Below are positions 2,510-63,478 of a stretch of DNA of 64,000 nucleotides, piece after piece. This DNA is from a candidate division FCPU426 bacterium (GTDB lineage Bacteria; Oederibacteriota; PGYV01; Palsa-1178). Location: NCBI GenBank assembly GCA_963840035.1, contig CAWIXE010000002.1:640001-704000 (forward strand), given 5' to 3'. A program made the position numbers and the translations under genes. Under the pieces are notes generated by a model. That model was not told the origin of the DNA. It made no database searches and saw only the letters and a program-made list of their open reading frames with translations. The first letter of the stretch is position 1. Every line of letters begins with the position of its first letter.

Positions 2510-2682
2510 GACCCACCTCGTTTTTGGTTTGTTTCCTTATAACTATATTATAACAAATGTATATACGGGTTTCAAGGTAAACAATATTTTAAATTTTCGA
2601 TTTTCAATTTTCAATTACAAACAGACAAAACAAATCTTGTATTGTTTTTTTATGCATTTAATTGAAAATATAAAATTAAAAA

Positions 2683-3438
2683 TTAAAACCGTAAATTTAT
2701 ACCAACGCCTGCGTTAATACCGGAATAATCAACAGTCCTTGTGCCGCCGAGTCCGTCTGAGATGATGGAGCCTTTCGGGACAAAGACGGTGTTTCCGACT
2801 TTTATCTCATCAACCGCTTTCAGGTTATCATATTTCGCGTATCTGTAACCCAGGTTCACACTTAAGGTAAACATATCGGCGAGGTAAAATTCAACAGCGG
2901 AAACAGCTTCGCCCATGATGCCGCCGCCCTGGTAGACGCTGCTGTAGCTGGTAATGGAAGAAGTATCAGTCAGCGGTTCTGAAGTGTTGATGCTTTTAGT
3001 CGCGAATGCCACTCCATACCCGCCGTACGCGCCCACTGTGAAAGAGAGGAATGTAAGCGGGACTTTGATGTGAAAATTCGCGCCGAGCATAACAGGGACA
3101 AGCACGGCCGCGTAGGTTTCTTTTGTGTTGTTGAGCATATCTGCGATAGTGATGGAGGTTGGAAGAACTACCTGCGCTCCTGTCTTTGGGCCTATAGAAA
3201 TATTGTTGTTTACGCCAAAATCAAAACACACATTGGCGTATACGGAATTGCCAAAAGTGGTAAAGCTGGCGTCCTTGCCGCCGTTTATGGCTGATTCCTT
3301 CATGGTGGTCAGACCGTTCTTTAGGTCGTCCATTGAAGCGTAAGAATAACCCGCATCAAGGCCGAAGCGGAACACAGCGGACACGGAAGCGGACAGGCAA
3401 AGGGTTAAGACTAATACAAGTAATGCTGATTTTTTCAT
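2683..3438 (-). CDS. Outer-membrane beta-barrel protein, paralog 2
   Basis: Start moved to MKKSALL (AGGAGG SD). C-terminus VDYSGINAGVGINLRF. Confidence 0.75.
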   Translation of the reverse strand: MKKSALLVLVLTLCLSASVSAVFRFGLDAGYSYASMDDLKNGLTTMKESAINGGKDASFTTFGNSVYANVCFDFGVNNNISIGPKTGAQVVLPTSITIADMLNNTKETYAAVLVPVMLGANFHIKVPLTFLSFTVGAYGGYGVAFATKSINTSEPLTDTSSITSYSSVYQGGGIMGEAVSAVEFYLADMFTLSVNLGYRYAKYDNLKAVDEIKVGNTVFVPKGSIISDGLGGTRTVDYSGINAGVGINLRF

Positions 3439-3545
3439 GTAATCCTCCTTGGATATTTGAGTAATTATATAACCATAAAAATATATTTTCAAGTTGTAAA
3501 TTAGACGGACGGGAAATGGGAAAGGTTACGCAAAGCGGAAGAAAT

Positions 3546-3575
3546 AAAAAAGGGAGCCTTCGCAGGCTCCCTTTT
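3546..3575. terminator. Intrinsic terminator
   Basis: aaaaaagggagcct-tcgc-aggctccctttt. Confidence 0.85.
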
Positions 3576-3590
3576 GTTTTCTGTTATGAA

Positions 3591-4298
3591 TTAAAACTTA
3601 AATGACACTCCGGCTTTAAAGTTCAGGCCGCTGTAATCGACCGGTAAGGCGGTGTCTGTAAGATAATTTTTCAGTTCGTCGCCTTTTTTTATGCTGTAAT
3701 AATCCGAGTCTGCCGTGGCCTTTAAAGACGTTATATTTGCAATCTTATAGCCAATGGTTACTTTGATTGTCATTAAGGATAACGGAGAAATCTCTATGCC
3801 GCCAAGAATGTCATAAACAGGGGCGCCTCCGGAAAAACCGGCTGTCGATGTATTGCCGGCGATCTTATTGTCAAGGTTGTGGAATGAAAAACCGTATCCG
3901 CCGAAGCCCTCAATAATAATTCCAACAGGAAAATCTTTTAAACGGATATCAATTGAGGCGCCAATTTGAGCGGGAATCAGTATGCTGTCCGTGCGCATAT
4001 AATCGCTGCCGCCTGTTATGGAACCCTGAGTGCATTTTACGAGGCCCACCCTCGGCCCTATCTGAAGAAACCATAAAGCCTGATACATCAGGTCGATGTT
4101 GGCATCAAGAGCGCTGGTAATCTTTGTGACTTTTGTGGTTGGAAACAAAACGTGGATATCGTCCATGGATTTGTTTACTTTTTCCATTGACGGCATTGCG
4201 TAACCGATGCCTAATCCTAAATTCCAGCTTGCTGATTCAGCGAAAGAAAAAGATGAAAATAAAGCAACGGCAATGACTGCTGATAAAAATTTTTTCAT
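3591..4298 (-). CDS. Outer-membrane beta-barrel protein, paralog 3
   Basis: Signal peptide, AGGAGG SD, C-terminus VDYSGLNFKAGVSFKF. Confidence 0.75.
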   Translation of the reverse strand: MKKFLSAVIAVALFSSFSFAESASWNLGLGIGYAMPSMEKVNKSMDDIHVLFPTTKVTKITSALDANIDLMYQALWFLQIGPRVGLVKCTQGSITGGSDYMRTDSILIPAQIGASIDIRLKDFPVGIIIEGFGGYGFSFHNLDNKIAGNTSTAGFSGGAPVYDILGGIEISPLSLMTIKVTIGYKIANITSLKATADSDYYSIKKGDELKNYLTDTALPVDYSGLNFKAGVSFKF

Positions 4299-4388
4299 AT
4301 AATCCTCCTGGGTTTTGATGCGGTTATAATAACAATTTCAGACAGGTTAGTCAATAGGAAGGCGCGTGGTTTTGTAAAGAACCCGGTT

Positions 4389-5189
4389 TTAGAATCCTAC
4401 TGTTATGCCGGCGCCGAAGTTATATCCGGAATAATCTATGAAGACGTCTTTTCCGGCAAAATCCTTCAGCGCGTAGTCTTTTGGCAGGTCTATGCCAAGG
4501 CCCGCGCTTAAGTAAGAACCCGGCGTTTTTACGGTGGGGATGCGCGCGAGCTTATAACCCGCGCTTATGAAAAATGTGGTAAGCGGCGCCACTGAAAAAT
4601 CAAGGGATAAAAAACCGTCCGCGACAAAATTCCCGCCCTGATACGGGACTGTGATTGAAACCGGGTCAGAGCCTGTTACTTCGACCTTATATGTTTCCGC
4701 CACGAGTGCTATGCCATAACCCGCGTAACCGCCGAGCGTTATCGCGACATCAATACCTGGAACCGTCATTTTTGAAGTAAACCCCGCCATTAAAGGGATC
4801 AGCAGAGAGTCGAGCGTGTAGGTATATTTACCCGAGCCGCTGAAAATATAAGGCGATGTAAAGAATGGAAGGTCCACGGTGAGCGTGCCCTCGGTCGTGG
4901 TGCTTCCGGGGAAGCAGTATAGTAATCCAACCCTGGGGCCTACATATAATATATCAAGCAGTCCCACACTGATGTCAAGGTTGGCATATAAGCCGTCCTT
5001 AAAATACTTCTTTGTGTTGGTAGAGCCGATGTTGTCATTTTCTATTGTTAATGTCATAGAATTAATATAATCATTGGTCTCCTGCATGGTGACAAGGGCA
5101 TAACCGCCGTTAACACCCACATTAATAAGGGCAAAGGACTGGACCGCGAATAAAGCGCAAAAAACCGCTGAAGCAAGGATTTTTTTCAT
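4389..5189 (-). CDS. Outer-membrane beta-barrel protein, paralog 4
   Basis: Signal peptide, AGGAGG SD, C-terminus IDYSGYNFGAGITVGF. Confidence 0.75.
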   Translation of the reverse strand: MKKILASAVFCALFAVQSFALINVGVNGGYALVTMQETNDYINSMTLTIENDNIGSTNTKKYFKDGLYANLDISVGLLDILYVGPRVGLLYCFPGSTTTEGTLTVDLPFFTSPYIFSGSGKYTYTLDSLLIPLMAGFTSKMTVPGIDVAITLGGYAGYGIALVAETYKVEVTGSDPVSITVPYQGGNFVADGFLSLDFSVAPLTTFFISAGYKLARIPTVKTPGSYLSAGLGIDLPKDYALKDFAGKDVFIDYSGYNFGAGITVGF

Positions 5190-5336
5190 ATATACCTCCT
5201 GATATTTTTATGTTTATATGATATCAGCCAGTCAGTGTTAAGTCAAGTTTTGCATCCTTTTTAACGTTCAACCGTTATGTTATAGCATATGTTTAACGTG
5301 TTACAGACTAAAATACCGGATTCAGGAGATGAGCGG

Positions 5337-7898
5337 ATGAAAAGGTTCTTTGTTTTTCTGGCGTTATTGGCGCCTTCATATATATACCCGGCTACAGCCG
5401 CGATTACCGTGAATTATAATACGGAAATAAACGCGTTTACCCCGTCAAAACTGCTTGGAAATAATTCCGGGGTATGGCTTGCTCCCGCGGGATACAATAC
5501 CAACGCCGCTAAGATAAAGGCTGCGGGGTCTTCATTTATCAGGTTCCCGGGCGGAAGCCTTTCAAATGAATATCACTGGAACGGCGCCGGCTGGTTTGAC
5601 GCGCAGAAAATATGGCACTCTAACCCGTCGGCTTATTCAAAAGGTTTTATAGTTGAGCCCGAACACAGGGGGTCGTCATCAATCGGATACGGCAAGCCTG
5701 CGAAGTTAACTGACGGCTTGATTACAGCCTCCTCACAATGGCAGTCTGACACCATAACCGCGGCTTCAGCCACTACGAACGCTTATGTAATTATCAGGCT
5801 CGGCGCGCCGCAATACATAGACCAGGTAAAAATTTACTGGGGCGACACATACGCGGCTGAATACGCGATACAATACTGGTCAAGCACTGATTTTGCCTGG
5901 GCGCCGCATCAGGGAAATACAAATTATTGGCAGACGCTTGTGACGGTTACCGGAAATACGGGAGGTACCGATATCAGGACAATTCCCGCCACGTTTGGAC
6001 AAAACTTCAGGATACTTATGAAAAAAAGTTCCGGTACCGGATACAAGATGAACGAGGCCGAACTTTACAGCGGCGGGTATAAAAAGACAACCAACACAGC
6101 CACTACAGCCCAGACAGAAACTTACGCGTCGCCGACAGATAAGGCAAACGCGCCGATGGGGTGGACCCCGGATTATGATTTTCTGGCGTTCGTCAGTTTT
6201 TTAAGCAGTATTGGCCCGGACGCGCAGGGAATATGCAGCGTTAACTTCGGCACCGGTACTTATGAGGAAGCGGCGGCTTGGGTCCGGTACGCGAAGGATA
6301 ACGGATACCTAAGCAGGATTAAGTACTGGGAAGTCGGCAATGAGACAGAAGGCGTATGGGAGGCGGGCGGGCCGGTGGACGCGGAATACTATACCGAGCG
6401 TTTTATTCTTTTCTCTGACGCCATGAAAGCTGTTGATCCGGACATAAAAATATGCGGCCCGGTGCTTGCCTCATTACAGAATAATTCGGAGCTCTATGAC
6501 GGCATGTCATTTATGGATAAATTCCTTCAGGTACTGCAGTCGCACGGAAAACTGGCTTCGGTGGACGCGCTGGCGTTTCACATGTACCCCGACTGGCAGA
6601 ATACTGTGGAGGCGACTTCGCTTAGCACCCCGAATAACTGGGCGGCAGGGAGCAATTATAAGGCGTTCATAGACAATCTTCTTGTGAAATATTACGGTGA
6701 CGCCGCGGCAAAGGAATTAATAATGTCCGAGTATAACTGCGGCGCCGCGACAAAACTCACCATGGATTTCATGAACTCGCTGTGGACCGCGAACTGGCTC
6801 GGCGAATACGCGAAGTCTTTCGGCAACAGGGCATTTGCCAATCAGTGGGATATCATGAATAATAACGCTTCAACCGGGAATTACGACAACGGCTTTCTCG
6901 AGATAGGCCAGCAGACGGGCGCGTACAAATACCAGCCGCGATCGAGTTACTGGGGGATGTACATGATAAATAATTACCTGGCATGCGCCGATGAGTTTGG
7001 CAACACGCTTGTGGCCGCCTCGTCAAATCAGGGCCTGCTTCCGGTGTACGCGGCAAAACGCAATGACGGGAAACTCAGCCTTATGGTGATAAACAAGAGC
7101 AAGACAAACGCGTATACCTCGTCTATAAACATCAGCGGTTACGCGCCTGACCCGGCAGCGGAGCTTTATACATTCGCGGCAAACGCGTCGGCGCCGTACT
7201 ATGTTCAGAATTATGTCTGGCATGATGACGCCGCAAAATCATATGCCGACCCTGACCTTGCTCCGGTTAAAAACACATATGCCGGCGCGTCAGGCAGTTT
7301 CTCGTTTGACTTCCCGGCATATTCGATTTCTGTTTTCAATTTTGTCCCGTTTGGTTCCACGCCGACATTTACCCCGTCAATATCGCCGACACAATCACAG
7401 ACGAACACGTCAAGCGCCACGCCGACTTTTACCATCACAAAGACTGTGACTGTTACAAAGACCATTACAAATACGAGGACTGTCACTGATACGCATACCA
7501 TAACAAAAACAAGGACAGTCACTCCGACGTATACATTTACCCCGAGCATCACACTTACTTTTACGGCAACGGCGACAAAGACCCCGGGAGAACCAATACC
7601 GGGCGGGGCCGCACAACAGACTTATAAAAAAACATACGTTTATCCGTCGCCGTTTGATTCGTCGAAAGGCCACACCGGCATATGGTTTTTAAACCTCACA
7701 AAGCATTCAATAATAAAGATATATGACATGTCCGGGAAAATGGTGTACAGCAGGGAAGCTGATACGCCGCAGGGGGCGTATTTTCTGCGCTTTGAAGCGC
7801 AGCGGCGAAGGGATGTTTTTGCGCCGGGAGTGTATGTTTATGTTGTTAATAATAGAGGAAACCAGACTGCGACTGGAAAATTCGCGGTAATAAGGTAA
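5337..7898 (+). CDS. Secreted clan GH-A glycoside hydrolase (GH44/GH51/GH79-like) with inserted F5/8-type C (discoidin) domain, Thr-rich linker and C-terminal sorting-like domain
   Basis: Start MKRFFV after AGGAG. Motifs IRFPGGS, YWEVGNE (acid/base) and LIMSEYN (nucleophile). Discoidin-like insert (LTDG...WQS...IDQVKIYW...AEYAIQ). C-terminus VYPSPF...IKIYDMSGKMV...GVYVY...KFAVIR. Confidence 0.8.
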   Translation: MKRFFVFLALLAPSYIYPATAAITVNYNTEINAFTPSKLLGNNSGVWLAPAGYNTNAAKIKAAGSSFIRFPGGSLSNEYHWNGAGWFDAQKIWHSNPSAYSKGFIVEPEHRGSSSIGYGKPAKLTDGLITASSQWQSDTITAASATTNAYVIIRLGAPQYIDQVKIYWGDTYAAEYAIQYWSSTDFAWAPHQGNTNYWQTLVTVTGNTGGTDIRTIPATFGQNFRILMKKSSGTGYKMNEAELYSGGYKKTTNTATTAQTETYASPTDKANAPMGWTPDYDFLAFVSFLSSIGPDAQGICSVNFGTGTYEEAAAWVRYAKDNGYLSRIKYWEVGNETEGVWEAGGPVDAEYYTERFILFSDAMKAVDPDIKICGPVLASLQNNSELYDGMSFMDKFLQVLQSHGKLASVDALAFHMYPDWQNTVEATSLSTPNNWAAGSNYKAFIDNLLVKYYGDAAAKELIMSEYNCGAATKLTMDFMNSLWTANWLGEYAKSFGNRAFANQWDIMNNNASTGNYDNGFLEIGQQTGAYKYQPRSSYWGMYMINNYLACADEFGNTLVAASSNQGLLPVYAAKRNDGKLSLMVINKSKTNAYTSSINISGYAPDPAAELYTFAANASAPYYVQNYVWHDDAAKSYADPDLAPVKNTYAGASGSFSFDFPAYSISVFNFVPFGSTPTFTPSISPTQSQTNTSSATPTFTITKTVTVTKTITNTRTVTDTHTITKTRTVTPTYTFTPSITLTFTATATKTPGEPIPGGAAQQTYKKTYVYPSPFDSSKGHTGIWFLNLTKHSIIKIYDMSGKMVYSREADTPQGAYFLRFEAQRRRDVFAPGVYVYVVNNRGNQTATGKFAVIR

Positions 7899-7910
7899 TT
7901 TAATTGACTA

Positions 7911-7939
7911 TTGACTATAAAATAATAAAATGATATAAA
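7911..7939 (+). promoter_or_regulatory. Sigma70-type promoter of tRNA-Gln
   Basis: TTGACT-17 nt-TATAAA with a TG extension, about 10 nt before the tRNA. Confidence 0.6.
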
Positions 7940-7948
7940 TTTATACGT

Positions 7949-8024
7949 TGCCGGGTCGTCTAATTGGCAGGACACCTGACTCTGACTCAGGCGGTTGTAG
8001 GTTCGAGTCCTACCCCGGCAGCCA
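7949..8024 (+). tRNA. tRNA-Gln (anticodon CTG)
   Basis: Acceptor stem TGCCGGG/CCCGGCA, anticodon arm CCTGA-CTCTGAC-TCAGG, T-loop GTTCGAGTC, encoded CCA, 76 nt. Confidence 0.97.
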
Positions 8025-8069
8025 AAATGAAAAAAGCGCGCTTAAAGCGCGCTTTTTTCATTTTGGCTG
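8019..8069 (+). terminator. Long hairpin/terminator overlapping the tRNA 3' end
   Basis: Perfect 23-bp inverted repeat cagccaaaatgaaaaaagcgcgc / gcgcgcttttttcattttggctg. Confidence 0.75.
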
Positions 8070-8364
8070 AGATAGGTGAGAGGAGAGAGTAGATAGGAGA
8101 TAAGCAGCCCGTTTTAAAACCCGGATCAAAAACCGGGTAAGCATCCGGTCACCTTTCTCCTATCTCCTCTCTCGTGAACTTAGGGCTGGATTTTGTATTT
8201 GTTTTACTGCAACTTGCTTTTGTCTTTTCCGGCTGCTATACTTTTATCATAAGAGTGTGCAGCAAACCGTCGGCTTAAAGCCGGCATCATACCCGATATT
8301 TTAACTCAAATTGAAAACTGACAAAAAAATTATTTTATGTATTATTTCTGCACGGGGGTGCTGT

Positions 8365-8634: not shown

Positions 8635-9240
8635 ATGATAAAGGATATGCTGATTTTTTCGTTTTTGCCCATGCTTTTATTATCGGTACCATCATACGCG
8701 GCTGGAAAAGATAAAATCGCGACCGCCACTTTCGCGGGCGGGTGTTTTTGGTGCGTCCAGCCTGTTTTTGAATATATGAAAGGCGTCAAATCAACTGTGG
8801 CAGGGTACGCAAACGGCAAAGACAAAGACCCCACCTATGAGGATTATACTGAGAAAGGATATGTGGAGGCTGTGCAGGTGACATATGACCCTGCGGTTGT
8901 GACATACGAAGCGCTCCTTGAGAATTTCTGGATGCAGATAAACCCCACTGACGAAGGCGGCCAGTTCGTCGACCGCGGGGCGCAGTACAGGCCGGCGATA
9001 TTCTGGCGCGATGACGAACAGAAAAAAGCGGCGCTTGCTTATAAGGAAAAGATGTCAAAATCGGGAAAGTATGACGCGCCCATTAAAGTTGAAATATCGG
9101 CTTTTGTGAATTTTTATCCCGCCGAGGAATACCACCAGGATTATCATAAGAAGAACGCTTTCCGTTATAATATTTACAGGATGGGCACGGGCCGGGACGC
9201 TTATATTAAAAAAATATGGGGCGATATTAAAAAGAAATAA
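8635..9240 (+). CDS. msrA: Peptide-methionine (S)-S-oxide reductase, probably exported
   Basis: ATFAGGCFWC active site, GGQFVDRGAQYR and FYPAEEYHQDY motifs, N-terminal signal-like segment. Confidence 0.95.
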   Translation: MIKDMLIFSFLPMLLLSVPSYAAGKDKIATATFAGGCFWCVQPVFEYMKGVKSTVAGYANGKDKDPTYEDYTEKGYVEAVQVTYDPAVVTYEALLENFWMQINPTDEGGQFVDRGAQYRPAIFWRDDEQKKAALAYKEKMSKSGKYDAPIKVEISAFVNFYPAEEYHQDYHKKNAFRYNIYRMGTGRDAYIKKIWGDIKKK

Positions 9241-9299
9241 TTACTAATTACAAATGACCAATTACTAATGTGCGGAAAAACATTTAATTAGGTGGCTGG

Positions 9300-9829: not shown

Positions 9830-10264
9830 ATGTCATTCATGAGATTTCTTGTTGTTGGATTCTTAAGCGGCCTGCTTTTCGCTTTTATGGACAGCGTTGT
9901 AAACCAGAATAACCTTGCGCACGCGATGTTTGAGTATTATAAAACCATTGCCAGGGCAGGGATGAATATTAATATTATCATCGGTGTTTTCATACTTTAT
10001 GGCTTTGCCCTTACATGGATATTTGAGGTTCTTTATAAATCGCTGCCGGGCAAATCGGGGTTTTCAAAAGGTACAAGTTTCGGCCTCCTGATTTGGTTCT
10101 TTAAGGTATTTATGTACGCTATGACACAGTGGATGATCATACCGGTGCCTGTTAATACACTCGGATATATACTCTCGGCCGGACTCGCTGAAATGCTGCT
10201 GCTTGGATGGTTCTACGGGCTTTTAATTAACCCGGAAGAGCATGTTTCTAAGAGCGTGCTTTAA
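9830..10264 (+). CDS. Hypothetical 4-TM membrane protein
   Basis: GGAGG SD, four hydrophobic helices. Confidence 0.7.
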   Translation: MSFMRFLVVGFLSGLLFAFMDSVVNQNNLAHAMFEYYKTIARAGMNINIIIGVFILYGFALTWIFEVLYKSLPGKSGFSKGTSFGLLIWFFKVFMYAMTQWMIIPVPVNTLGYILSAGLAEMLLLGWFYGLLINPEEHVSKSVL

Positions 10265-10443
10265 ATGCGAATTACTAATTACCAATAAATGTGTGCTATC
10301 GCACGATTATTATATTAAATCGCAAAGCGATACCTAAATTAGTAATTGGTAATTCGTAATTAGTAATTTTGCATGCATGTAGTGTGGTTTGACTTACCTG
10401 TCTTCCTTTGTTATAATTTATTCACTAAAACAAAGGAGTTCAA

Positions 10444-13269: not shown

Positions 13270-13355
13270 ATATTTACATACAAAAGGAATTATCTTATAA
13301 TAAATAAATCATTGCGGACAGCGCGGGAGCGCTGTCCCTACAAAACGGAGAGAAC

Positions 13356-14210: not shown

Positions 14211-14340
14211 AGTGATACGTGGAAAGTGGTATGTGGTATGTGAAGTACGTACCACGTACCACGTACCACGTACCACGTACCACGTACCACGTACCACGTA
14301 CCACGTACCACGTACCACGTACCACGTACCACGTACCACA
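14211..14340. repeat. Heptamer tandem repeat (TACCACG)x12 + TACCACA, preceded by inverted degenerate copies
   Basis: Perfect array at 14250-14340. Upstream agtgata cgtggaa agtggta tgtggta are reverse-complement variants. Confidence 0.95.
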
Positions 14341-14365
14341 TTACACGTTTTAGGAGGTACTTTTA

Positions 14366-18153: not shown

Positions 18154-18238
18154 AATCACAAATCCCAAATCACATATCCCAAAGAAAACAAAAAAACGGC
18201 TGTTAACAGGCCGTTTTTTTTATTTGGGATTTGTGATT
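18154..18238. terminator. Terminator hairpin embedded in inverted AATC(A/C)CA heptamer arrays
   Basis: aatcaca aatccca aatcaca tatccca ... aaaaaaacggc-tgttaacag-gccgttttttt ... tttggga tttgtga. Confidence 0.8.
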
Positions 18239-18261
18239 AGCAGAAACGATACTGACTATAC

Positions 18262-18462
18262 TTGTGTGTAAATTGATTTGTTCTTTTATCCCTCTCCCCT
18301 TTGGCTATTTATAGTCCCCCCTTGCGGGGGAGAAGAGGGTAGGGTGAGGGGAATAAGGCAATTAGTTTCACCTCACCCCAGCCCCTCTCCTAAGAGGAGA
18401 GGGGGAAGCCGTAACAAGCAAAGCTCACTTTAAACTAATGGTGAAAATGAATTTACACACAA
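18262..18462. mobile_element. MITE-like element with terminal inverted repeats enclosing CCCTC-type palindromic repeats
   Basis: Perfect 13-bp inverted repeat ttgtgtgtaaatt / aatttacacacaa. Internal ccctctcccc...gggagaagagggtagggtgagggg and cctcaccccagcccctctcc...ggagaggg. No ORF. Confidence 0.55.
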
Positions 18463-18527
18463 TTACATACAATAACGATAGAAACAACTAACTTTATCCG
18501 GGCGAGAATCTGTGATATAATTAATCC

Positions 18528-19292: not shown

Positions 19293-19412
19293 GCGTAAAC
19301 TTAAAAATTAAAATTTAAAACTGAAAGTGAAATAAATGATCTAAACCGGACTGATAATGTATTTAGTTTTCAGCTTTTAGTTGTGAGTTTTAAGTTAAAA
19401 ATGGAGGGATAT

Positions 19413-21639: not shown

Positions 21640-21768
21640 AGGATGCGGGTGAGTAGTAGGTGGTGGGTAGTGGGTGGAGTAACAACGAGATAAAAGATAG
21701 GAGACAGGAAGTGTGGTGTTAATTAGAAATCAGGAATAAGAAATTAGAAATCCATTAGCGGAGACTTC

Positions 21769-22889: not shown

Positions 22890-22981
22890 AGAGTTTAACA
22901 GACAAGAGACTGGAGACAGGAAAAAGGGTTTTTGATTTGTTTCAAAATCAGGAATCAGAAATTAAAAACAAGAGGAATATA

Positions 22982-23500: not shown

Positions 23501-23574
23501 CAATTTTCAATTAGAAGCCGGACCTTGTTATTAATTGAAAATTTAAAATAGAAAATTTAAAATTAGGGGTTTAT

Positions 23575-31426: not shown

Positions 31427-32071
31427 ATGAAAAAGACAATTGCGGTCATTTTACTTGCAACGGCAATTATTTTATGTTCGTGCGGTAAGGTTAAGGAATA
31501 TCCGACATCAACGCTCATGTTGTCGGCGGGCGGCACCGATAATTCCACGTATCCTTTTGAGGACGCTGGAGGGCTCGCGGGATTCAGCATCATTGATGTA
31601 CCAACTAACCGGCGTTTTTTATCCATGTCTTTTTCAACTGAGCAGGCATACAAGGGATCCGGTTCGGTAAAAATAGCATGCAACTTTAACGCAGGCAACT
31701 CTGGTGGCGTTATATCCAGAAGCGGGACAAATATGCCCATGGCGGGAAAGACTATAACAGCCTATGTATGGGTCCCATACGGGATGTTTCCGCTGTCTCT
31801 GGTGTACGGCACGTCCATATTTGTCCAAATCGCAAATTTTAACTGGTATGACAGCGGCTGGAAAAATTTGACCCCGGCATCGGCAATAGTCCCGGGTATG
31901 TGGAACAAAATTTCGGCGAAGGTGGATGACATGATATTCAACGGCAAGAATTTCGCGGGCAATGGCGATAATGCCAATACAGCCATAATATGGGGAATAA
32001 AGGTCGGACAGGGCGGATCTTCCCCGAATTACACGGGAGACATTTACATAGATTCAATAACGGTTGAATGA
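31427..32071 (+). CDS. Lipoprotein with a single CBM-like domain
   Basis: Lipobox LCSC. YPFED...QAYKGSGSVKI...WYDSGW...GMWN...IYIDSI resembles the repeats of 25234-28944. Confidence 0.7.
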   Translation: MKKTIAVILLATAIILCSCGKVKEYPTSTLMLSAGGTDNSTYPFEDAGGLAGFSIIDVPTNRRFLSMSFSTEQAYKGSGSVKIACNFNAGNSGGVISRSGTNMPMAGKTITAYVWVPYGMFPLSLVYGTSIFVQIANFNWYDSGWKNLTPASAIVPGMWNKISAKVDDMIFNGKNFAGNGDNANTAIIWGIKVGQGGSSPNYTGDIYIDSITVE

Positions 32072-32673
32072 TACAGATGGAGATTATTACTGTAGTTGAC
32101 CCGATTATGGGTGAGAATTGTTATCTGCTGATAGAAAGCGGCGAAGCTGTAATAATTGACCCCGGTCTGGCGTACGAAAGCATCAAATTGAAAATTGAAA
32201 ATCTTAAATTGAAAATTAAATATATTTTATTAACCCACGGCCACTACGACCACATCTTTTCACTCCAATATTTCAGGGATATAAAGACCTATGCCCATGA
32301 AAAAGAACGCGCTATGCTTGAAAATCCGGACATAAACCTCTCGTCGCGAGTGGGCGAACAGTTTTCATTTAAGGACATAACTTACTTTGGCGGGGAAACA
32401 TATCAAATGGACGGCTTTGAATTCATGCATTCCCCCGGACATACAGAAGGCGGGGTCCTCATAAAAAAAGGAAATGACATATTCACGGGAGACACGCTGT
32501 TCTTTGATTCCATTGGCCGTTCTGATACACCTTCAGGCGACCCTGAGGCTATGAAGAGGACATTAAAGATATTTGATAAGATTGACAGAAAATGCGTCAT
32601 GCACCCCGGACACGGGGAGAGTTTCGTGCTTGAAGATGCTTTTAAAACAAATTATTTTCTCAGGAAAAGATGA
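32068..32673 (+). CDS. MBL-fold metallo-hydrolase (glyoxalase II-like)
   Basis: LTHGHYDH, SPGHT, FTGDTLF and PGHG motifs. Confidence 0.92.
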   Translation: MIQMEIITVVDPIMGENCYLLIESGEAVIIDPGLAYESIKLKIENLKLKIKYILLTHGHYDHIFSLQYFRDIKTYAHEKERAMLENPDINLSSRVGEQFSFKDITYFGGETYQMDGFEFMHSPGHTEGGVLIKKGNDIFTGDTLFFDSIGRSDTPSGDPEAMKRTLKIFDKIDRKCVMHPGHGESFVLEDAFKTNYFLRKR

Positions 32674-32995: not shown

Positions 32996-33304
32996 ATGGA
33001 GCGTGCGGCTGTGAATAAAGAGGATTTTCTTGAAGTAATATCCACATGGAATTCCATATATCTTTCAAACCACCTTGCCTATGAGATACAAAAAAAGGAA
33101 AGCTTTGAGCCTGAATGGAAAAAGAGAATGCTCAGGGTTATTTCCGTTCTTTATGTAACTGATGAGATAAAAGACACGCCCGTGGAAAGCATGGTAAATA
33201 AAGCCATACGTTACGCTAAAAATTCTGATTCATCCAAAATTCAGGAAGTTCATGAGCTGTTGTATACCGTAGAGAAGTTTATTAACGAAGACACAGACAA
33301 CTAA
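32996..33304 (+). CDS. Hypothetical helical protein
   Basis: ORF directly downstream of the consensus promoter; start MERAAV. Confidence 0.6.
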   Translation: MERAAVNKEDFLEVISTWNSIYLSNHLAYEIQKKESFEPEWKKRMLRVISVLYVTDEIKDTPVESMVNKAIRYAKNSDSSKIQEVHELLYTVEKFINEDTDN

Positions 33305-33375
33305 TCACAAGTCCCAAATCACAAATCCCAAATAACGGCACTTCTTTGGGATATGTGATTTGGGATTTGAGATTT
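33303..33375. repeat. Inverted pair of AATC(A/C)CA heptamer arrays
   Basis: aatcaca agtccca aatcaca aatccca ... tttggga tatgtga tttggga tttgaga. Confidence 0.85.
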
Positions 33376-33440: not shown

Positions 33441-34340
33441 ATGTCTGTCGTTATAGTAGGGTCAATGGCTTTTGACACCATAGAAACACCCTTTGATAAA
33501 AGGGAAAAAGTGCTGGGCGGCGCGTGCGTTTACGCGTCTATCGCGGCATCATATTTTGACAGGCCTTACATAGTCGGGGTTGTAGGCGATGATTTTACCG
33601 ATGCCCAATTCAAGCTCCTTCACGATAAAAAGATCGATACGCTCGGCGTAAAAAAGGAAAAAGGAAAATCTTTTTTCTGGGCCGGCAGGTATAATGCCGA
33701 CATGAAAACCAGGGAAACAATCACCACGGAACTCAATGTGTTTGAGCATTTTAACCCTGAGATACCTGAAAAATACAGCGCCATGCCGTACTTGTTCCTG
33801 GCGAATATTGACCCAGCGCTGCAGCTCAAGGTTTTGAATTCAATGAAAAAGCTGAAATTTTCAATGTGCGACACCATGAACCTCTGGATTTCCATAAAGA
33901 AACCTGAATTGACGGAAGTGTTTAAAAGGGTCAACTGCGTTGTTTTAAATGATGAAGAGATAGCCCAGTATACCGGAAAAACAGACATAGTATCAGGGGC
34001 GAAGGACATAATGAAACTCGGGCCCCAATATATTATTATTAAAAAAGGGGAGCATGGAGCTGTTTTGATCGGGAAGAACCTTTATTTTAACCTGCCGGCT
34101 TACCCTGTGGCAAAAGCGTCTGACCCTACCGGGGCCGGGGATACTTTTGGCGGGGCGTTCATCGGATACCTCGCGGGCCGCAATGACACAGGCGTGTCCG
34201 CCATGAAAAAAGCCATTGCATACGGAAATACGGCAGCCTCATTTACAGTGGAAGACTTCGGGGTTGACCGCATTAACGGCGTCTCCAGGAAAGAAATTGA
34301 CGCGAGGATGAATCAACTGAAGAAAATGGTTACATTCTAA
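33441..34340 (+). CDS. PfkB family carbohydrate kinase
   Basis: VGSMAFD...LGGA, IIKKGEHGA and DPTGAGDTFGG motifs. Confidence 0.92.
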   Translation: MSVVIVGSMAFDTIETPFDKREKVLGGACVYASIAASYFDRPYIVGVVGDDFTDAQFKLLHDKKIDTLGVKKEKGKSFFWAGRYNADMKTRETITTELNVFEHFNPEIPEKYSAMPYLFLANIDPALQLKVLNSMKKLKFSMCDTMNLWISIKKPELTEVFKRVNCVVLNDEEIAQYTGKTDIVSGAKDIMKLGPQYIIIKKGEHGAVLIGKNLYFNLPAYPVAKASDPTGAGDTFGGAFIGYLAGRNDTGVSAMKKAIAYGNTAASFTVEDFGVDRINGVSRKEIDARMNQLKKMVTF

Positions 34341-34435
34341 CTTAAAACTGGAAGCTGAAAACTGAAAGTGAATTCGAAAAATGCTTCAACTTTAAGTTTT
34401 CAGTTTTAAATTTTAAGTTAATGATAGGGGTTTAT

Positions 34436-35656: not shown

Positions 35657-35726
35657 AAATACAATTGACAATGGACAATTGTCAATTGACTATAAAAAAG
35701 ATCAAAAAAATCGTCGGAGGTTTTAA

Positions 35727-36911: not shown

Positions 36912-36991
36912 GATAAAAGCTCAGAGCCCAAAGCTCAGGTGAAATCTACTTGGGATATGGGCTCTGGGATATTACACTTTCAAGGAGTTAT

Positions 36992-37702
36992 ATGGCTGAC
37001 CAGATCTGGTTAAAGGATGTAAAGTGCCCGGCGTGTGACCTTGCGTTTAAGACCGCCAGGGTAAAACCGTCGGCGCTTAAGGTGAAAATGGGCGAGGCTG
37101 ATTTTCATAAGATTTATGAAAATATTAACCCGCTCCTGTACGCTGTCACGTCATGCCCGGGCTGCAATTATTCCGCCAGGAATGACGAGTTTGACGACAG
37201 GACGCTGGAGTACCACCCGCAGATAATAAAGATAGCCATGGCCATAAAGGATTCCGGCAAGAACGTGAAATTTCCGGAGACAAAGGACAGCGATTTGGAA
37301 ACATCGGCAAAGAAGCACCTCCTGGCCATAACTTTTGCCAAACTTTTTAAGCCGGAGGACCCGCTTACCATAGCGGGGTTATATATGCACCTTGCGTGGA
37401 TGCACAGGGAAGCTGGCAACGCGGAAAAAGACAGGGAATACTTAAAACCGGCTCTTGAATATTACATAAAAACTTTTGAAAAGGGCAGCCACATTCCTGA
37501 AAAGATCGGCGAGCCGGGCATAATTTACCTTATAGGCGAGCTAAACAGGGTTCTCGGAAATAATACCGAAGCGGTTACCTGGTTTTCCCGCGTGGTAAAG
37601 CACGATCAGATTCATAATTTCCCGAGCATTGAAAACCTGGCAAGAGACGCGTGGGAGAAGGTCACGGAAGAGAAGCGCAGGGCGAAAGAGCAGGAAAAAT
37701 AG
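36992..37702 (+). CDS. DUF2225 domain protein (Zn ribbons + TPR-like)
   Basis: CPAC...INPLLYAV..CPGCNYSA, LAWMHRE and YLIGEL motifs. Start after AAGGAG. Confidence 0.85.
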   Translation: MADQIWLKDVKCPACDLAFKTARVKPSALKVKMGEADFHKIYENINPLLYAVTSCPGCNYSARNDEFDDRTLEYHPQIIKIAMAIKDSGKNVKFPETKDSDLETSAKKHLLAITFAKLFKPEDPLTIAGLYMHLAWMHREAGNAEKDREYLKPALEYYIKTFEKGSHIPEKIGEPGIIYLIGELNRVLGNNTEAVTWFSRVVKHDQIHNFPSIENLARDAWEKVTEEKRRAKEQEK

Positions 37703-37766
37703 CCCAAAGCCCAGAGCTCAAGTCCCAAGTGACGCAGACTTGGGCTATGGGCTCTGAGCTTTGGCT
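37701..37766. repeat. Inverted pair of AGC(C/T)CA(A/G) heptamer arrays
   Basis: agcccaa agcccag agctcaa gtcccaa ... ttggg ctatggg ctctgag ctttgg. Same family at 36918-36970. Confidence 0.8.
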
Positions 37767-39385: not shown

Positions 39386-39542
39386 AGCAATTACTAATTA
39401 CAAATTACTAATAAAGGAGCGCGGTGCGCTTTTTATTATAGTAATGCATGGCAAAGGATTCGGAGTACTTGTTTCTATTAGTAATTAGTAATTGGTAATT
39501 GGTAATTAGTCATTAAATTTGTATTTGAGGGTTTGGTGGATC

Positions 39543-50835: not shown

Positions 50836-52176
<1,341 letters not shown>

Positions 52177-52421: not shown

Positions 52422-52520
52422 CGGCGTTAAAAAGCAAAACCCGCCTGCGCGGGGAGGAGCCGCAGACGGGTTTGTGCGTCCTATATTGGTAATTAGTCAT
52501 TAGTAATCAGTAATTTATTT

Positions 52521-56861: not shown

Positions 56862-56945
56862 TGTGTGGTGCTTTGGATAGTGGTGCGTGGTAAGTGGTAT
56901 GTGCCACGTACTGCACACCACACGTACCACGCATCACGTACCACT
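56862..56945. repeat. Inverted degenerate TACCACG-family heptamer arrays
   Basis: agtggtg cgtggta agtggta ... gtaccac gcatcac gtaccac. Confidence 0.75.
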
Positions 56946-58321: not shown

Positions 58322-58704
58322 GGGCCCGCCGCGTCGGCGCGGCGGGCCCGGTGTCAGCGTCGAAGTAGAAGGGATTTTTAGATGGCGCTAAAGCGCCATC
58401 TAAAAATCCCTTCTTGCTTTTGTAGGGGCCGCCCTATGTGGCGGCCCGCTGGCAGTAAGAACTTGTCCTTCGTTTTGGGCGATTCGTGAATCGCCCCTAC
58501 AAAACCAAACGGGACCAAAAGAAACCTCTAAAAATCCCTTCTTGCTTTTGTAGGGGCCGCCCTATGTGGCGGCCCGCTGGTAGTAAGAACTTGTCCTTCG
58601 TTTTGGGCGATTCGTGAATCGCCCCTACAAAACCAAACGGGACCAAAAGAAACCTCTAAAAATCCCTTCTTGCTTTTGTAGGGGCCGCCCTATGTGGCGG
58701 CCCG
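58322..58704. repeat. BIME-like REP array: 128-bp unit x about 2.4 plus flanking palindromes
   Basis: GTAGGGGCCGCCCTATGTGGCGGCCCG at 58422, 58550 and 58678, with inverted GGGCGATTCGTGAATCGCCCCTAC partners. 23-bp perfect inverted repeat at 58367-58414. Confidence 0.9.
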
Positions 58705-58751
58705 ATGCTGATGATTTGTTTATGGTTTAAAAGAACAGTTCTAAAGATTTA

Positions 58752-58782
58752 TACCCGGGGCGTGTTCATCACGCCCCGGGTA
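58752..58782. terminator. Hairpin after GS-III
   Basis: tacccggggcgtg-ttcat-cacgccccgggta. Confidence 0.65.
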
Positions 58783-58798
58783 AGTTTTGATTTGTTAT

Positions 58799-60910: not shown

Positions 60911-60956
60911 GTTATATCTCCTTCGCCGACGATTTTAATACCTTTGGTATCATATA

Positions 60957-60972
60957 AGCAATATGCGTGCCG
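60957..60972 (-). promoter_or_regulatory. Sigma54 (-24/-12) promoter of GS-III
   Basis: Minus strand CGGCAC-GCATA-TTGCT. Confidence 0.85.
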
Positions 60973-61021
60973 TTTAAATTGATAATAATATAAGGGGTTT
61001 ATCAGCTTGTCACAAATTATT

Positions 61022-61141
61022 TGGTCAAGAATCATACAATAATTTCTCTTGAGTGGTTAAATATTAACCAAAAATTCTGATATTATGCTTGATTTATAAG
61101 GCGGGATATAGTAAATTGACCATGTGATTAGGTATTAACCA
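61022..61141. promoter_or_regulatory. 17-bp enhancer-like boxes shared with the amtB promoter
   Basis: TGGTCAAGAATCATACA (61022), TGGTTAAATATTAACCA (61054), TGATTAGGTATTAACCA (61125). Confidence 0.7.
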
Positions 61142-61169
61142 TTAAATGAGCAATAAAGGGAGTTTTCCT

Positions 61170-63254
61170 ATGTCAAAAAAACAGGAACCTATGAGCCAGC
61201 AGGATGGCGATTTTGAAAAGAAGATAATCAAATTAAAGCTGGTTCATTATATATCGGTTGAAATGAACAAGCCGCATTCCACAAAAGACCTCCTGACGCT
61301 TATACTTGAGCGCTGTCTTGAGTTAACCGGCGCTAAAACCGGAAGCGTAATGCTCATAGATGAAAAGGACCAGGTTCTGGATATAGTGGCTTTTAAAAAC
61401 CTTCCCATAAAGGCCGCGGAGAGTCCCAGGCTTAAACTCGGCGAGGGCGTTACGGGCTGGGTGGCGCAGACAGGAAATCCCAAACTGATAAATAACACCA
61501 GGCAGGACCCGATATATGTAAAAGTAAGGGAAGATCTTTTATCCGAACTTGCTGTCCCGATAAAAACTGAGAACAGGGTCATAGGCGTTATCAGCGTCGA
61601 CTCAAATAAGCAAAACGCGTTTACCGAGGATGACCTGGAGCTTTTAATAATGGTGGCTGAACTCGCGGCGCAGATTATTACCAAGGACCTTATACAGGAA
61701 CGTTTAAGCTCCAAAATACTTTCACAGGAGATATTAATAGATACTTTCCATATAATAGAACAGGAAGAATCCTTGAATGAGGTTTTCAACAAGGTTATGG
61801 AAGTGTTAAAGGGTAAAATGGGAATCCTGCGCGGCATGCTTGTGCTTTTTGACAAGGAAAATCCTGATTCGCTGAAAATTTACAGCGGTTATAAAATCAG
61901 CGAGGACGCCATAAAGAACGGCGTTTATAAGATTGGTGAAGGTATCATTGGAAACACGGTGTTAAAAGGGCAGACAATAGCCGTGGAAGATGTTACAAAG
62001 GACCCGAATTATTTAAACAAGCTGAAGATTCACAGGCAGGAAAAGAACTCGATTGTAGCCGCGCCAATCAAGGCGGGGCCGCGCGTGCTCGGCGTCCTTG
62101 AAATAGAAAAGGTTTTTGACGAGAAGGAGCACTTTCAGGATGGCGTTGATACCATCACTCTGCTTGCGTCCCTTATCGCGTACAGGGTAAGGAGCTTCCA
62201 GCGCCAGCAGGATGAAACGCAGAAACTTATAAGCGAAAATATCGAGCTGCGTAAAGAATTAAAAAAGGAATACAGCTTTAAAAATATTATCGGCAAGAAT
62301 GAGCAGGTAAGGAAAATACTGGAGCAGGTAAAAACGGTATCCAATACAACCGCGCCGGTGCTTATTACAGGGGAAACCGGGACAGGCAAGGAACTAATAG
62401 CTAAAATTACTCATTTTTTAAGCGACAGGCGCGAGAATAAGTTCATAAGCGTGAACTGCGCCGCAATCCCCGAGAATCTGCTGGAATCAGAACTCTTTGG
62501 CTATGAAAAAGGGGCGTTTACAGGGGCGGCCGGAAATAAAAAAGGAAAGTTTGAGCTGGCTGATAAAGGAACCCTGTTCCTTGATGAGATAGCTGAAATG
62601 CCGCTGCAGCTCCAGTCAAAGATACTGCGCGCGCTGCAGGAAAAAGAAATAGAGCCGCTGGGCAGCGAGAAAACGACAAAAGTGGACATACGCATAATAG
62701 CGGCCACGAATAAGGATTTAAAAAAGCTCGTGGATGACGGGAAGTTCAGGGCGGACCTGTTCTTCAGGCTAAATGTCATAAGCGTGCACATGCCGCCGCT
62801 GCGCGAGCGCAATGACGACATGCCCCTGCTTGTGGATTTTTTCATAAAAAGGTATAATGAACTGTATAATAAACAGGTGGCGGGCATAGATAAAAGCGTC
62901 GATGAAATATTTAAGAACTACCAGTGGCCCGGCAACATCAGGGAACTGGAAAATGTCATTGAACGGGCTGTTATTATGGCAAAAGGGAGCCTGATAGACA
63001 TATCGCTTATTCCTGACGCCATAAATCCCGCAAAGAACAAAGATGAAGGGTTCAATATCAGGAATTACATAAAGATAGAGGCAAAGAAAAAAGCCGATGG
63101 AAGCATATACAAGGAAGTAATAGGCGCGCTTGAAAAGTCGCTGATAGAGGAGCTGCTTGTTGAAACAGGAAACAACAAACTGCAGACAGCCGTAAAGCTC
63201 GGGATAAACAGAAATACGTTAAAGTCGAAAATGAAGGAATATGGGATAAATTAA
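61170..63254 (+). CDS. NifA-like sigma54-dependent activator (GAF-GAF-AAA+-HTH)
   Basis: Two GAF domains, GETGTGKE, intact GAFTGA, LFLDEI, WPGNIRELEN and Fis-type HTH (LGINRNTL). Confidence 0.93.
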   Translation: MSKKQEPMSQQDGDFEKKIIKLKLVHYISVEMNKPHSTKDLLTLILERCLELTGAKTGSVMLIDEKDQVLDIVAFKNLPIKAAESPRLKLGEGVTGWVAQTGNPKLINNTRQDPIYVKVREDLLSELAVPIKTENRVIGVISVDSNKQNAFTEDDLELLIMVAELAAQIITKDLIQERLSSKILSQEILIDTFHIIEQEESLNEVFNKVMEVLKGKMGILRGMLVLFDKENPDSLKIYSGYKISEDAIKNGVYKIGEGIIGNTVLKGQTIAVEDVTKDPNYLNKLKIHRQEKNSIVAAPIKAGPRVLGVLEIEKVFDEKEHFQDGVDTITLLASLIAYRVRSFQRQQDETQKLISENIELRKELKKEYSFKNIIGKNEQVRKILEQVKTVSNTTAPVLITGETGTGKELIAKITHFLSDRRENKFISVNCAAIPENLLESELFGYEKGAFTGAAGNKKGKFELADKGTLFLDEIAEMPLQLQSKILRALQEKEIEPLGSEKTTKVDIRIIAATNKDLKKLVDDGKFRADLFFRLNVISVHMPPLRERNDDMPLLVDFFIKRYNELYNKQVAGIDKSVDEIFKNYQWPGNIRELENVIERAVIMAKGSLIDISLIPDAINPAKNKDEGFNIRNYIKIEAKKKADGSIYKEVIGALEKSLIEELLVETGNNKLQTAVKLGINRNTLKSKMKEYGIN

Positions 63255-63478
63255 GGCAATCACAAAGCCCAAATCACAAATCCCAAAGATTTTCGTAGAG
63301 CCGCTGCTTGCTGCGGCTCAGGGCTGGAAATTAGTAGTCGCAGGCCTGCGTGTTATCGGCCTGCGCCTAGTTTAGTAATGGATATACGCAAACGTAAGAA
63401 CGTTCAAACCACTTTTACAATGCGAAGGCGCTAGCGGATATAAAAAATAATTTTAAAACAACTTGTTTGGAGGGAAGA

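Follow-up and report, generated by a model that had tools for sequence, protein, structure and literature searches.

Paired heptamer arms with five anchors and their possible link to pentameric PF05635 proteins in a candidate division FCPU426 bacterium

In the present study, a 64,000-nt stretch of a candidate division FCPU426 genome (the window) was analysed together with the whole genome and its relatives. Arrays of 7-base units, here called arms, lie between or inside the protein and tRNA genes of the window, most of them as inverted pairs around a loop (Table 1); no rRNA gene is present in the window, unlike the setting of a 23S rRNA intervening sequence. All of the tracts listed in a preliminary description were present at the coordinates given there, and an arm inside a gene (32186-32216) had been overlooked.

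Table 1. Arms, arm pairs and hybrids in the window
Feature	Position	Strand	Remarks
Head-to-head pair, ATTTTCA family	2586-2688		Left arm 2586-2616, five ATT anchors; other arm begins at stop of gene 2683-3438 (-)
ATTGACT remnant, two units	7903-7918	+	Directly past stop of gene 5289-7898
Pair, GAGACAG/AGATAGG family	8069-8173		44 nt past tRNA-Gln (7949-8024); GC hairpin in loop
Single AATTACT arm	9239-9269	+	Five AAT anchors; overlaps msrA stop codon
Pair, AATTACT family	10263-10368		Five anchors in right arm 10337-10368
Pair, GTGGTAT family	14212-14346		Between folD and coaD; five GTG anchors in left arm; about 13 perfect units in right arm
Pair, AATCCCA/AATCACA family	18154-18238		Past GH57 gene; terminator-like hairpin in loop
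Pair, AAAACTG/AAACTTA family	19297-19397		Spans stop codon to ribosome-binding site
Hybrid	21649-21751		GTGGGTA left arm, weak GAGACAG arm, ATTTCTA-family right arm (21721-21751, five anchors, upstream of recO)
Hybrid	22897-22969		GAGACAG left and ATTTCTG-family right arm; between two NlpC/P60 genes
Pair, ATTTTCA family	23504-23563		Truncated left arm; right arm 23533-23563, five anchors
Single ATTTTCA-family arm	32186-32216	-	Within metallo-beta-lactamase-fold gene 32068-32673; segment length equal to 7/7 orthologues
Pair, AATCCCA family	33303-33375		From stop codon to just before promoter-like stretch common to relatives
Pair, AAAACTG family	34339-34419		Orthologous gap near zero in 4/5 relatives
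Collapsed ATTGACA-family pair	35661-35691		Short hairpin
Pair, AGCCCAA family	36918-36972		
Pair, AGCCCAA family	37701-37766		Begins within TAG stop
Pair, AATTACT family	39389-39515		Six anchors in right arm
Single AATTACT arm	52485-52514	-	Past P-II gene stop, convergent gap
Pair, GTGGTAT family	56862-56945		Past stop of second ammonium transporter gene (-)
Single AATCCCA arm	63258-63287	+	Past sigma-54 activator gene

An excess at lag 7, confined to intergenic DNA, was borne out. In the 43 gaps of the window, five-base identity at lag 7 was 30.5 per 1000 compared with 2.0 in dinucleotide shuffles (z 42), and the same test gave z values of 0.3, -0.6 and 0.1 at lags 5, 6 and 8. Genome-wide, intergenic lag-7 identity reached 9.6 times the shuffled level, compared with 1.2, 1.7 and 1.1 times at lags 5, 6 and 8, and no lag-7 peak was observed in coding DNA. 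Intergenic arrays of period 7 numbered 833, compared with 6, 76, 25 and 41 for periods 5, 6, 8 and 9; 7-base runs occur at about 640 genome sites, with about 990 arms in total, and a period-7 tract lies at 587 of 2995 gene ends (approximately one fifth). The inverted pairing claimed earlier also exceeded chance, as an inverted partner was present in the same gap for 483 of the 833 arrays, compared with 158 of 2495 control gaps.

The preliminary description spoke of two to five degenerate units; the repeated units were confirmed, but their number is not free. The typical arm consists of four 7-mers plus 3 nt, the start of a fifth unit (31 nt). In-register ATT runs at period 7 comprised 289 of three, 125 of four, 393 of five, 11 of six and none longer, and no five-anchor ATT run was found at periods 5 or 8. 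GTG runs at period 7 numbered, from three upward, 26, 28, 34, 2, 0 and 1. Five anchors were present in 100 of the 114 arms of the largest family, and arm profiles outside the anchors fall to background. Moreover, 30 of the 31 arms of a period-9 family have four units plus a partial fifth, indicating that the anchor count remains constant while period and length change. The spike at five depends on the triplet chosen, with AAA, GAG, AGT and CCA runs declining steadily from three, and a period-6 family has 4-6 units per arm. In several relatives, five- and six-anchor matches numbered 90/0 (G030), 108/4 (G006), 49/4 (G010) and 24/1 (G029); in some others long runs are present (165/133 in G012, 31/18 in G008 and 23/18 in G023, with the TTA control pattern). 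The five-anchor rule and the protein link described below were not found in print; paired heptamer arrays themselves have been published for Xanthomonas and Geobacter.

The 132 consensus 7-mers group into about 16 families, four of which have the ATT anchor in common and one of which is nearly the reverse complement of another, so that the earlier phrase "many unrelated 7-mers" was an overstatement. Within pairs, 589 arms are head-to-head and 5 back-to-back, and 184 of 199 pairs are family-matched; at variable positions, the two arms of one element agree almost independently (0.736 versus 0.706 for shuffled partners), and the pairing stops short of the upstream gene. Two tracts previously read as single arms (21653-21753 and 22900-22968) are hybrids of a left arm of one family and a right arm of another, and no arm-to-arm RNA stem was obtained on folding them. 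Among 178 loops, 24 have a relative, a few such pairs being one element counted from both sides, and one loop subfamily occurs in both orientations. A profile search to E 1 revealed no gene debris in the loops. Identical 31-mers were observed at 11 sites with unrelated loops; selection towards consensus could partly account for this identity.

The pairs lie close against stop codons, ribosome-binding sites, promoters and tRNAs. In gaps of up to 500 nt, the first arm begins no more than 15 nt from the stop in 61-82% of cases, the ribosome-binding site begins 3-26 nt past the right arm, and one arm strand lies near stop codons and the other near starts. Sixteen complete pairs lie between divergent genes; in divergent gaps, about 14 of 33 arms carry a -35-like word, judged by eye, pointing away. 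Presence and absence in relatives, a comparison proposed earlier, proved patchy: the same junctions have no arm or an arm of another word. Tight junctions carrying arms show a net gain in length, and single arms inside coding DNA, distant from any partner, substitute equal-length segments of the orthologues.

A search for co-occurring gene families had also been proposed, and one such family, PF05635, was found tied to the arms. Eight PF05635 profile matches are present in the genome, seven of them above the curated cut-off, and TIGR02436 matched in all five of those tested. Three of the seven genes lie within inverted 7-mer arms, one within longer inverted repeats and three with upstream arrays. 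Inverted 7-mer arms were found around 54 of 78 homologues from other phyla, compared with 9 when flanks were swapped, with arm lengths peaking at 23-26 and 30-32 nt and a long tail. For other genes lying between arms, the number was close to that expected by chance (12 versus 7). Across 30 relatives, PF05635 and array counts were correlated (rho 0.71, kin being not independent); one relative, G009, had nine five-anchor matches yet no PF05635 hit. For AATTACT, AATCCCA/AGCCCAA, ATTGACA, GTGGGTA and AAAAGTC, which comprise several hundred arms, no matching PF05635 gene was found in the genome when flanks were read. A Xanthomonas PF05635 protein has been described as a toroidal homopentamer (PMC4990558), and the solved homologues 2GSC and 2RLD list five chains each. 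The related Avd, a distant homologue (NCBIfam E 1.7e-4, under the cut-off), forms a pentamer between whose protomers the bases of bound RNA are flipped (10.1101/2023.10.23.563531). A structure model of four copies scored 0.74 compared with 0.00 for the best control, a score that likeness to 2GSC may explain; contacts agreed at 93% and pLDDT was at least 85. Among solved homo-pairs, 21 of 30 attain the pass mark for this score, compared with 0 of 23 single chains. The model supports self-association of four copies of the PF05635 protein, though the pass may reflect that likeness.

The kinship with published heptamer repeats was rightly noted before, though no photosynthetic reaction-centre hit was found in this genome. 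The STRR sequences of cyanobacteria are intergenic heptamer runs. Hallmarks of the Xanthomonas and Geobacter paired arrays are all present here, namely period-7 intergenic enrichment, about four units, convergent inverted pairs and stop/start strand placement. As here, the GGGAATC arrays found in Xanthomonas and the GGGGA(C/T)T arrays found in Nostoc (PMC4692102) are intergenic and mostly of four units; Xanthomonas has convergent inverted pairs, 70-75 in each genome, with one strand near stops and the other near starts. However, that single G-rich family was read as G-quadruplex DNA, whereas the approximately 16 families here are mostly AT-rich and quadruplex-incapable, and a four-helix-bundle protein is not mentioned in the searched passages. 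PMC2700814 describes hepta- and octanucleotide sites in Geobacter metallireducens in several classes, with four or five tandem units, opposite-strand pairs at variable distance and some sites inside genes, as here; those sites number tens of copies compared with about 990 arms, and were assigned to global regulators, with IHF/HU suggested. The TAACTGA repeats of Beggiatoaceae, Cyanobacteria and Bacteroidetes (PMC4679880) are likewise gene-adjoining intergenic heptamer runs of 2-6 units but, unlike the present arms, have been described as direct repeats of a single word, for which S1, Csp or Csr were named as possible binding proteins; the mobile element, in the author's view, might be a protein that binds the repeat. 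ORF-bearing 23S rRNA intervening sequences (PMC4990558) also place a PF05635 gene between complementary ends with heptamers beside the ORF; however, they lie inside rRNA and are cut by RNase III, whereas here the cassettes are found at mRNA junctions, and for every gene there are more than 100 arms without one. REPIN-RAYT systems (PMC3337134) likewise show families of inverted doublets around unrelated loops, singles in decay and a gene of matching family with the repeat on its flanks. The REP, however, is a short palindrome and its RAYT partner an HUH transposase, whereas the present arms are periodic, form hybrids and have a partner without known catalytic activity.

Several identities were considered and fitted poorly. 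The arms do form inverted same-family doublets with a variable spacer, yet no cognate RAYT is flanked by them (0 of 8 Y1 genes within 400 nt) and they are not the short palindromes of REPINs. Nor do they resemble MITEs in target-site duplications, of which 220 elements showed no excess over shuffled flanks, or in homologous interiors, only 24 of 178 loops having a relative. A diversity-generating retroelement was rejected because the query used gave no PF00078 reverse transcriptase match and the Avd model fell far below cut-off, and a DNA uptake sequence because different words, rather than one conserved word, occupy orthologous sites. TRAP is a ring bound by triplet repeats with variable spacers, one short motif per subunit, and is an 11-mer. 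TRAP and Avd rings resemble the present proposal in the one motif per subunit, although the TRAP fold is unrelated, and Avd recognises a stem-loop and acts together with a reverse transcriptase, an enzyme for which the search of this genome gave no match.

Herein, we propose, with a probability of about one half, that the arms are binding sites of pentameric PF05635/TIGR02436 proteins and are copied at the DNA level. Each subunit would hold one anchor on a single strand. An arm-gene-arm cassette may carry a family into a lineage, after which arms would be copied, without target duplication, onto tolerant DNA, adding length at tight junctions and replacing equal lengths in protein loops. The loops between arms might then drift or gather terminators and REP hairpins, arms would decay to singles, and recombination between sites would yield hybrids. 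Copying at the DNA level is suggested by the pairs between divergent genes, the loop subfamily in both orientations, the identical 31-mers with unrelated loops and the equal-length arms in coding DNA; ring-assisted annealing or template switching on single-stranded DNA would be its likely route, and RNA hairpins would be a by-product possibly used by the host. The further idea that the pentamer is both reader and writer, gripping five single-stranded anchors and pasting its own site over tolerant DNA without a transposase or reverse transcriptase, is speculative and on balance rather unlikely. If true, it would describe a selfish protein-plus-site system that spreads by overwriting and diversifies into many specificities, and would also cover the heptamer repeats seen in cyanobacteria, Xanthomonas, Geobacter and Bacteroidota. 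No mechanism has accompanied the reports of heptamer repeats from many bacteria, and no function is known for the "23S rRNA intervening-sequence protein", a widespread pentamer; in this genome the two are linked by a quantitative rule of five anchors, irrespective of the word and at both period 7 and period 9, from which the stoichiometry and specificity of binding can be predicted. The five-anchor arms offer an explanation, open to testing, for a type of bacterial repeat that has long lacked one, and a ring family of many natural sequence specificities could serve as a tool.

Of the common generating mechanism or structural role suggested earlier, the common grammar and a protein-lattice role gain from the five-anchor arms and the four-helix-bundle link, whereas a mainly RNA role does not. 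That role, in which long stems past stop codons would be retained to be cut by RNase III, to protect 3' ends or to terminate transcription, in the manner of 23S rRNA intervening sequences, appears unlikely. The predicted hairpins are strong (median -34 kcal/mol over 89 nt), with folding z of -3.1 to -9.1 in 13 of 16 window elements, including one hybrid whose fold is not arm-to-arm; solo sense arms exceed antisense arms (262 versus 126), G-U exceed A-C mismatches in arm pairs (122 versus 87, p 0.018), an RNase III gene is present, and heptamers lie at the RNase III cut of the Coxiella intervening sequence (PMC4990558). Together with the closeness to stops and ribosome-binding sites, these observations speak weakly for it, but the arms of one element are nearly independent, hybrids and singles are unable to pair, pairs occur between divergent genes, arm-free gaps also show a sense-strand folding bias (217 versus 132), and pairing needs neither periodic sequence nor a limit of five. 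A similarly improbable reading takes each pair for a REPIN- or MITE-like non-autonomous transposon that a transposase moves as a unit, with the four-helix-bundle gene as a passenger. The doublet families with unrelated loops and decaying singles (PMC3337134), the family matching, the length gain and the related loops, some in both orientations, agree with such movement. Neither target duplications nor inverted flank words exceeded shuffled flanks in the 220 elements, no conserved terminal bases were found beyond the anchors, and single arms in coding DNA, far from partners, leave length unchanged. Furthermore, the Y1/RAYT-like genes, the transposase class covered by the search, lack nearby arms, and several sit amid their own GTAG-type hairpins, the type found at REPIN ends.

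Slippage-born simple repeats with a 7-base bias, with partners from local template switching and no reader, would account for the perfect long expansions (14247-14346; G000:C2:1613198-1613845), of which the right arm of the 14212-14346 pair is likely a slippage product, and for units homogenised within an arm at one fixed coding site; many bacteria contain heptamer repeats in excess (Mrazek 2007, cited in PMC4692102). As a general account this is quite improbable, because falling lengths would be expected instead of a spike at five followed by a 36-fold drop to six, the same count is kept at period 9, partners are family-matched yet nearly independent in detail with pairing that does not reach the upstream gene, and the arms around PF05635 genes are left unexplained. 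Equally doubtful are sites of a different factor, for instance a filament formed on duplex DNA in 7-bp steps or a receptor for DNA uptake, accumulating under an uptake-sequence-like drive. Neisserial uptake sequences likewise form inverted pairs in terminators at permissive core-genome positions (PMC2397512), arm frequency rises with codon score from 6.5% to 24.7% of gene ends, and global-regulator sites were proposed for the Geobacter pairs (PMC2700814); however, an uptake sequence is one short conserved word, whereas about 16 families coexist here and change between relatives, and PF05635 is the sole gene family found tied to the arms.

With about one fifth of gene ends carrying a tract and arms rewriting protein loops, regulation and proteins may both be shaped by this system. 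At one coding site, three words occupy three genomes, and those of G002 and G006 are rare in their own genomes (one pattern match each), which fits drift of old arms better than pasting from an abundant family.

The inverted heptamer arrays are real and genome-wide in the genome under study (G000), and they represent a multi-family form of a repeat class that is known but unexplained. Each heptamer tract named for the window in the preliminary description was found to be present. Within the window, lag-7 identity reached a z of 42, with harmonics at 14, 21 and 28; in intergenic DNA genome-wide it was 9.6 times the dinucleotide-shuffled level, and nothing similar was observed at lags 5, 6 or 8. 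The inverted pairing described earlier was also borne out, as 483 of 833 arrays had an inverted partner within the same gap, compared with 158 of 2495 controls. These 833 intergenic period-7 arrays are spread over 591 gaps, and a profile scan revealed 1137 arms (about four 7-mer units plus the start of a fifth), 991 of them strong, at ~640 sites. In earlier reports, GGGAATC arrays that occur in pairs and mostly have four units show the same placement (PMC4692102), several paired classes have four or five units (PMC2700814, whose supplementary alignments may bear on unit counts), a repeat-binding protein has been proposed as a possible mobile element (PMC4679880), and an rRNA intervening sequence carries heptamers beside its ORF (PMC4990558). 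In a further report, the pentamer of Avd, a related protein, binds RNA whose bases are inserted between the protomers (10.1101/2023.10.23.563531). REPINs (PMC3337134) and uptake sequences (PMC2397512) offer analogies for the arms. A literature search, largely without subscription papers, identified neither a link between dispersed heptamer arms and PF05635, the four-helix-bundle family of the "23S rRNA intervening-sequence protein", nor a five-anchor rule. What is new is that the rule extends across periods and fits a pentamer, and this makes the open question on heptamer repeats directly testable.

Arm length has its maximum at 31-32 nt and collapses beyond 36 nt, and the family profiles consist of a conserved triplet, the anchor, repeated five times with four more variable tetramers in between. 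When maximal anchor runs were counted without any profile, runs of three, four, five and six ATT anchors at period 7 numbered 289, 125, 393 and 11, with nothing beyond six, and no ATT runs of five were found at periods 5 and 8. GTG runs from three upward numbered 26, 28, 34, 2, 0 and 1, and those of AAA, GAG, AGT and CCA fell steadily from three; thus, the spike at five depends on picking the triplet that closes the arm. In a period-9 family, 30 of 31 arms have four units and a partial fifth, and the arms lie after stops, paired head-to-head; the unit count of a period-6 family is looser. Both families have a common paired-arm layout (see table). The TRAP ring reads triplets, with one motif per subunit. 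Because the anchors number five at either period (7 or 9) and break off sharply thereafter, we read the arms as likely pentamer sites, in which each subunit of a ring would hold one anchor motif.

Co-occurring gene families, a check suggested in the preliminary description, led to PF05635, with seven genes above the cut-off in G000. Three of them, at C2:519706, C1:780744 and C1:786301, are bracketed by inverted 7-mer arms at the stop/start junctions, two of these matching gene-less pairs in words and geometry; among the rest, one has longer inverted repeats and three have arrays upstream only. By-eye reading indicated the same layout, with other words, for most copies in relatives. Among 78 homologues from many phyla, a period-7 run was observed on at least one side in 62 and an inverted partner in 54, compared with 9 in the swapped-flank control; the flanking arms elsewhere show peaks at four and at five anchors, with a long tail. 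The number of PF05635 genes is correlated with that of five-anchor matches (rho 0.71 in 30 relatives, which as kin are not independent), with 0-9 matches in the 8 genomes without a PF05635 hit and 11-424 in the 12 with at least five genes, including G000. Five chains are listed for solved PF05635 homologues. A four-copy model scored 0.74 compared with 0.00 for the control, and the pass mark was reached in 21 of 30 homo-pairs but in none of 23 monomers; this predicted model supports head-to-tail self-association, possibly owing to likeness to 2GSC. Cargo other than PF05635 was rejected, with 12 bracketed gene sets compared with 7 expected and ordinary genes as the candidates. The upstream-only genes form a distinct clade, their arrays preceding a promoter-like stretch and two of the three lying just 3' of tRNA genes; they are possibly autoregulated or integrated at tRNAs. 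In addition, the PF05635 genes of G008 (locus L063) and G010 (locus L061) have period-9 runs on their flanks, and weak PF05635-like matches occur near folD in G022 and G023.

Coordinates of the features (C1-C3, contigs of G000)
Feature	Position
Loop with hairpin/-10-like/hairpin layout	window 10290-10337
Loop, same layout	window 39412-39477
Loop, same layout	C1:689104
Loop, same layout	C1:775829
Loop, same layout	C3:38665
PF05635 gene, upstream-array clade	C2:73387
PF05635 gene, upstream-array clade	C2:1127107
PF05635 gene, upstream-array clade	C3:492535
Longer weak PF05635-like gene below cut-off, without arms, ~5 kb before the window	C2:634173-634799
Period-9/period-6 paired-arm layout, example	C1:699284-699379
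Period-9/period-6 paired-arm layout, example	C2:973620-973712
One arm expanded as a perfect 14-base (two-word) repeat, ~650 nt	C2:1613198-1613845
Coding arm compared in seven orthologues	window 32186-32216
Site with different words in three genomes	C2:496571
GAGACAG family arm at tRNA 3' end	window 8069
GC-rich REP-like hairpin 5' of folD	window ~13311-13345
Y1 gene with the same hairpin just 3'	C2:1380708
Dispersed repeat, ~230 bp	window 18245-18480
Nitrogen-assimilation cluster	window 40080-63254

Placement follows gene boundaries, as drawn by a purpose-made codon-model caller (2995 genes; part of the 89 "coding" arm matches are miscalls). In co-directional gaps of up to 500 nt, the first arm starts within 15 nt of the stop in 61-82% of cases, against a uniform expectation of 7-50%, and right arms end a few bases 5' of the ribosome-binding site; in convergent gaps, 93% of arrays lie within 15 nt of a gene end. 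Stops are dispensable: sixteen complete pairs were observed between divergent genes, and a tRNA begins 5-14 nt beyond the end of seven arms. Arms adjoin the nearest functional boundary, which would fit survival at tolerated positions only. Of 46 tRNA genes, 6 are followed by the GAGACAG family 22-45 nt past their 3' end, one of them in the window. Genome-wide, gene ends with an arm rise from 6.5% to 24.7% across codon-score quintiles, and the longest arm-free stretches reach 62 kb.

For 12 window junctions that carry an element, 9 of 70 orthologous junctions in seven same-family genomes had a marked array in the first 260 nt, always with different or just loosely related words. Of 20 relatives, 12 have a folD-coaD gap of at most 20 nt, and in four the gap contains other words. 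Such short or arm-free gaps indicate that intergenic elements add length. Arms within genes need not do so. Among 35 strong coding arms, 12 picked as mid-gene were compared with orthologues: the one in the window fills an equal-length segment in 7/7, five of the other 11 equal the length of some orthologues (5/5, 3/6, 2/4, 2/5 and 1/6), a clear gain in length (+14 and +18 residues) was seen in two and a slight one in another two, and the remaining two fall within indel-rich loops. At C2:496571, each of three genomes has its own word, with register and span shared, and in a fourth genome the stretch is plain sequence of equal length. The words of G002 and G006 there are rare in their own genomes; as a result, drift from a single old arm and fresh pasting are equally likely at this site. 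A metagenome scan for a close relative of G000 found none (best identity, 77%), and the sole DNA run containing a minor share of G000 yielded short scattered contigs with no informative allele.

Several origins and roles were weighed. We rejected the copying of gene-specific sequence by in-place fold-back, because pairing drops to background upstream of the stop. Head-to-head orientation prevails (589 arms versus 5) and 184 of 199 pairs are family-matched; at variable positions, agreement between the arms of a single element is barely above that of shuffled partners (0.736 compared with 0.706; 50 pairs, largest family). Most loops are unrelated to one another, with a relative for 24 of 178, two 31-mers are each identical at 11 sites with unrelated loops, and no target duplications were found around elements. 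A role in RNA, possible as a host use, would be consistent with strong predicted stems and the RNase III of G000; however, the G-U bias is small and arm-free gaps show the same direction, a control after which the sense-strand folding bias was discounted. Strand polarity was also rejected as RNA evidence, since a head-to-head pair looks identical from either strand. Y1/RAYT-like transposase genes occupy eight loci in G000, several amid their own GTAG-type hairpin repeats, and were rejected as partners, all eight being unlinked and without arms.

Herein, we give a probability of about 0.5 to the reading of the arms as PF05635 pentamer sites, brought into the genome by arm-gene-arm cassettes and copied at the DNA level onto tolerant sequence; binding and copying are what we infer. 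Several results count against this reading: five arm families have no matching PF05635 gene in G000, no debris of four-helix-bundle genes was found in element loops, the arms around homologues elsewhere peak at four as well as five anchors, and some relatives have long runs. The profile query for reverse transcriptase (PF00078) and the query for PF13366 found neither in G000.

In some loops, an AT-rich -10-like word is placed between two small hairpins; one such subfamily occurs in both orientations, and these loops may be two-way promoters. GTAG-type hairpins are also frequent in loops of heptamer elements. The REP-like hairpin beside folD recurs many times in G006. The ~230-bp repeat, with G/C-run hairpins, follows an AATCCCA element and recurs in G000 in over 30 copies, complete or partial; it probably belongs to a REP- or MITE-like family of its own. 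G000 itself is 3.46 Mb and 98% complete, with no photosynthetic reaction-centre gene found, and the window corresponds to C2:640001-704000. Gene content of the window, named from Pfam matches, is ordinary and includes folD, coaD, HU, recO and gltBD; its nitrogen-assimilation cluster comprises glutamate synthase, glutamate dehydrogenase, a GAF-ANTAR regulator, P-II, two ammonium transporters, glutamine synthetase III and a GAF sigma-54 activator.
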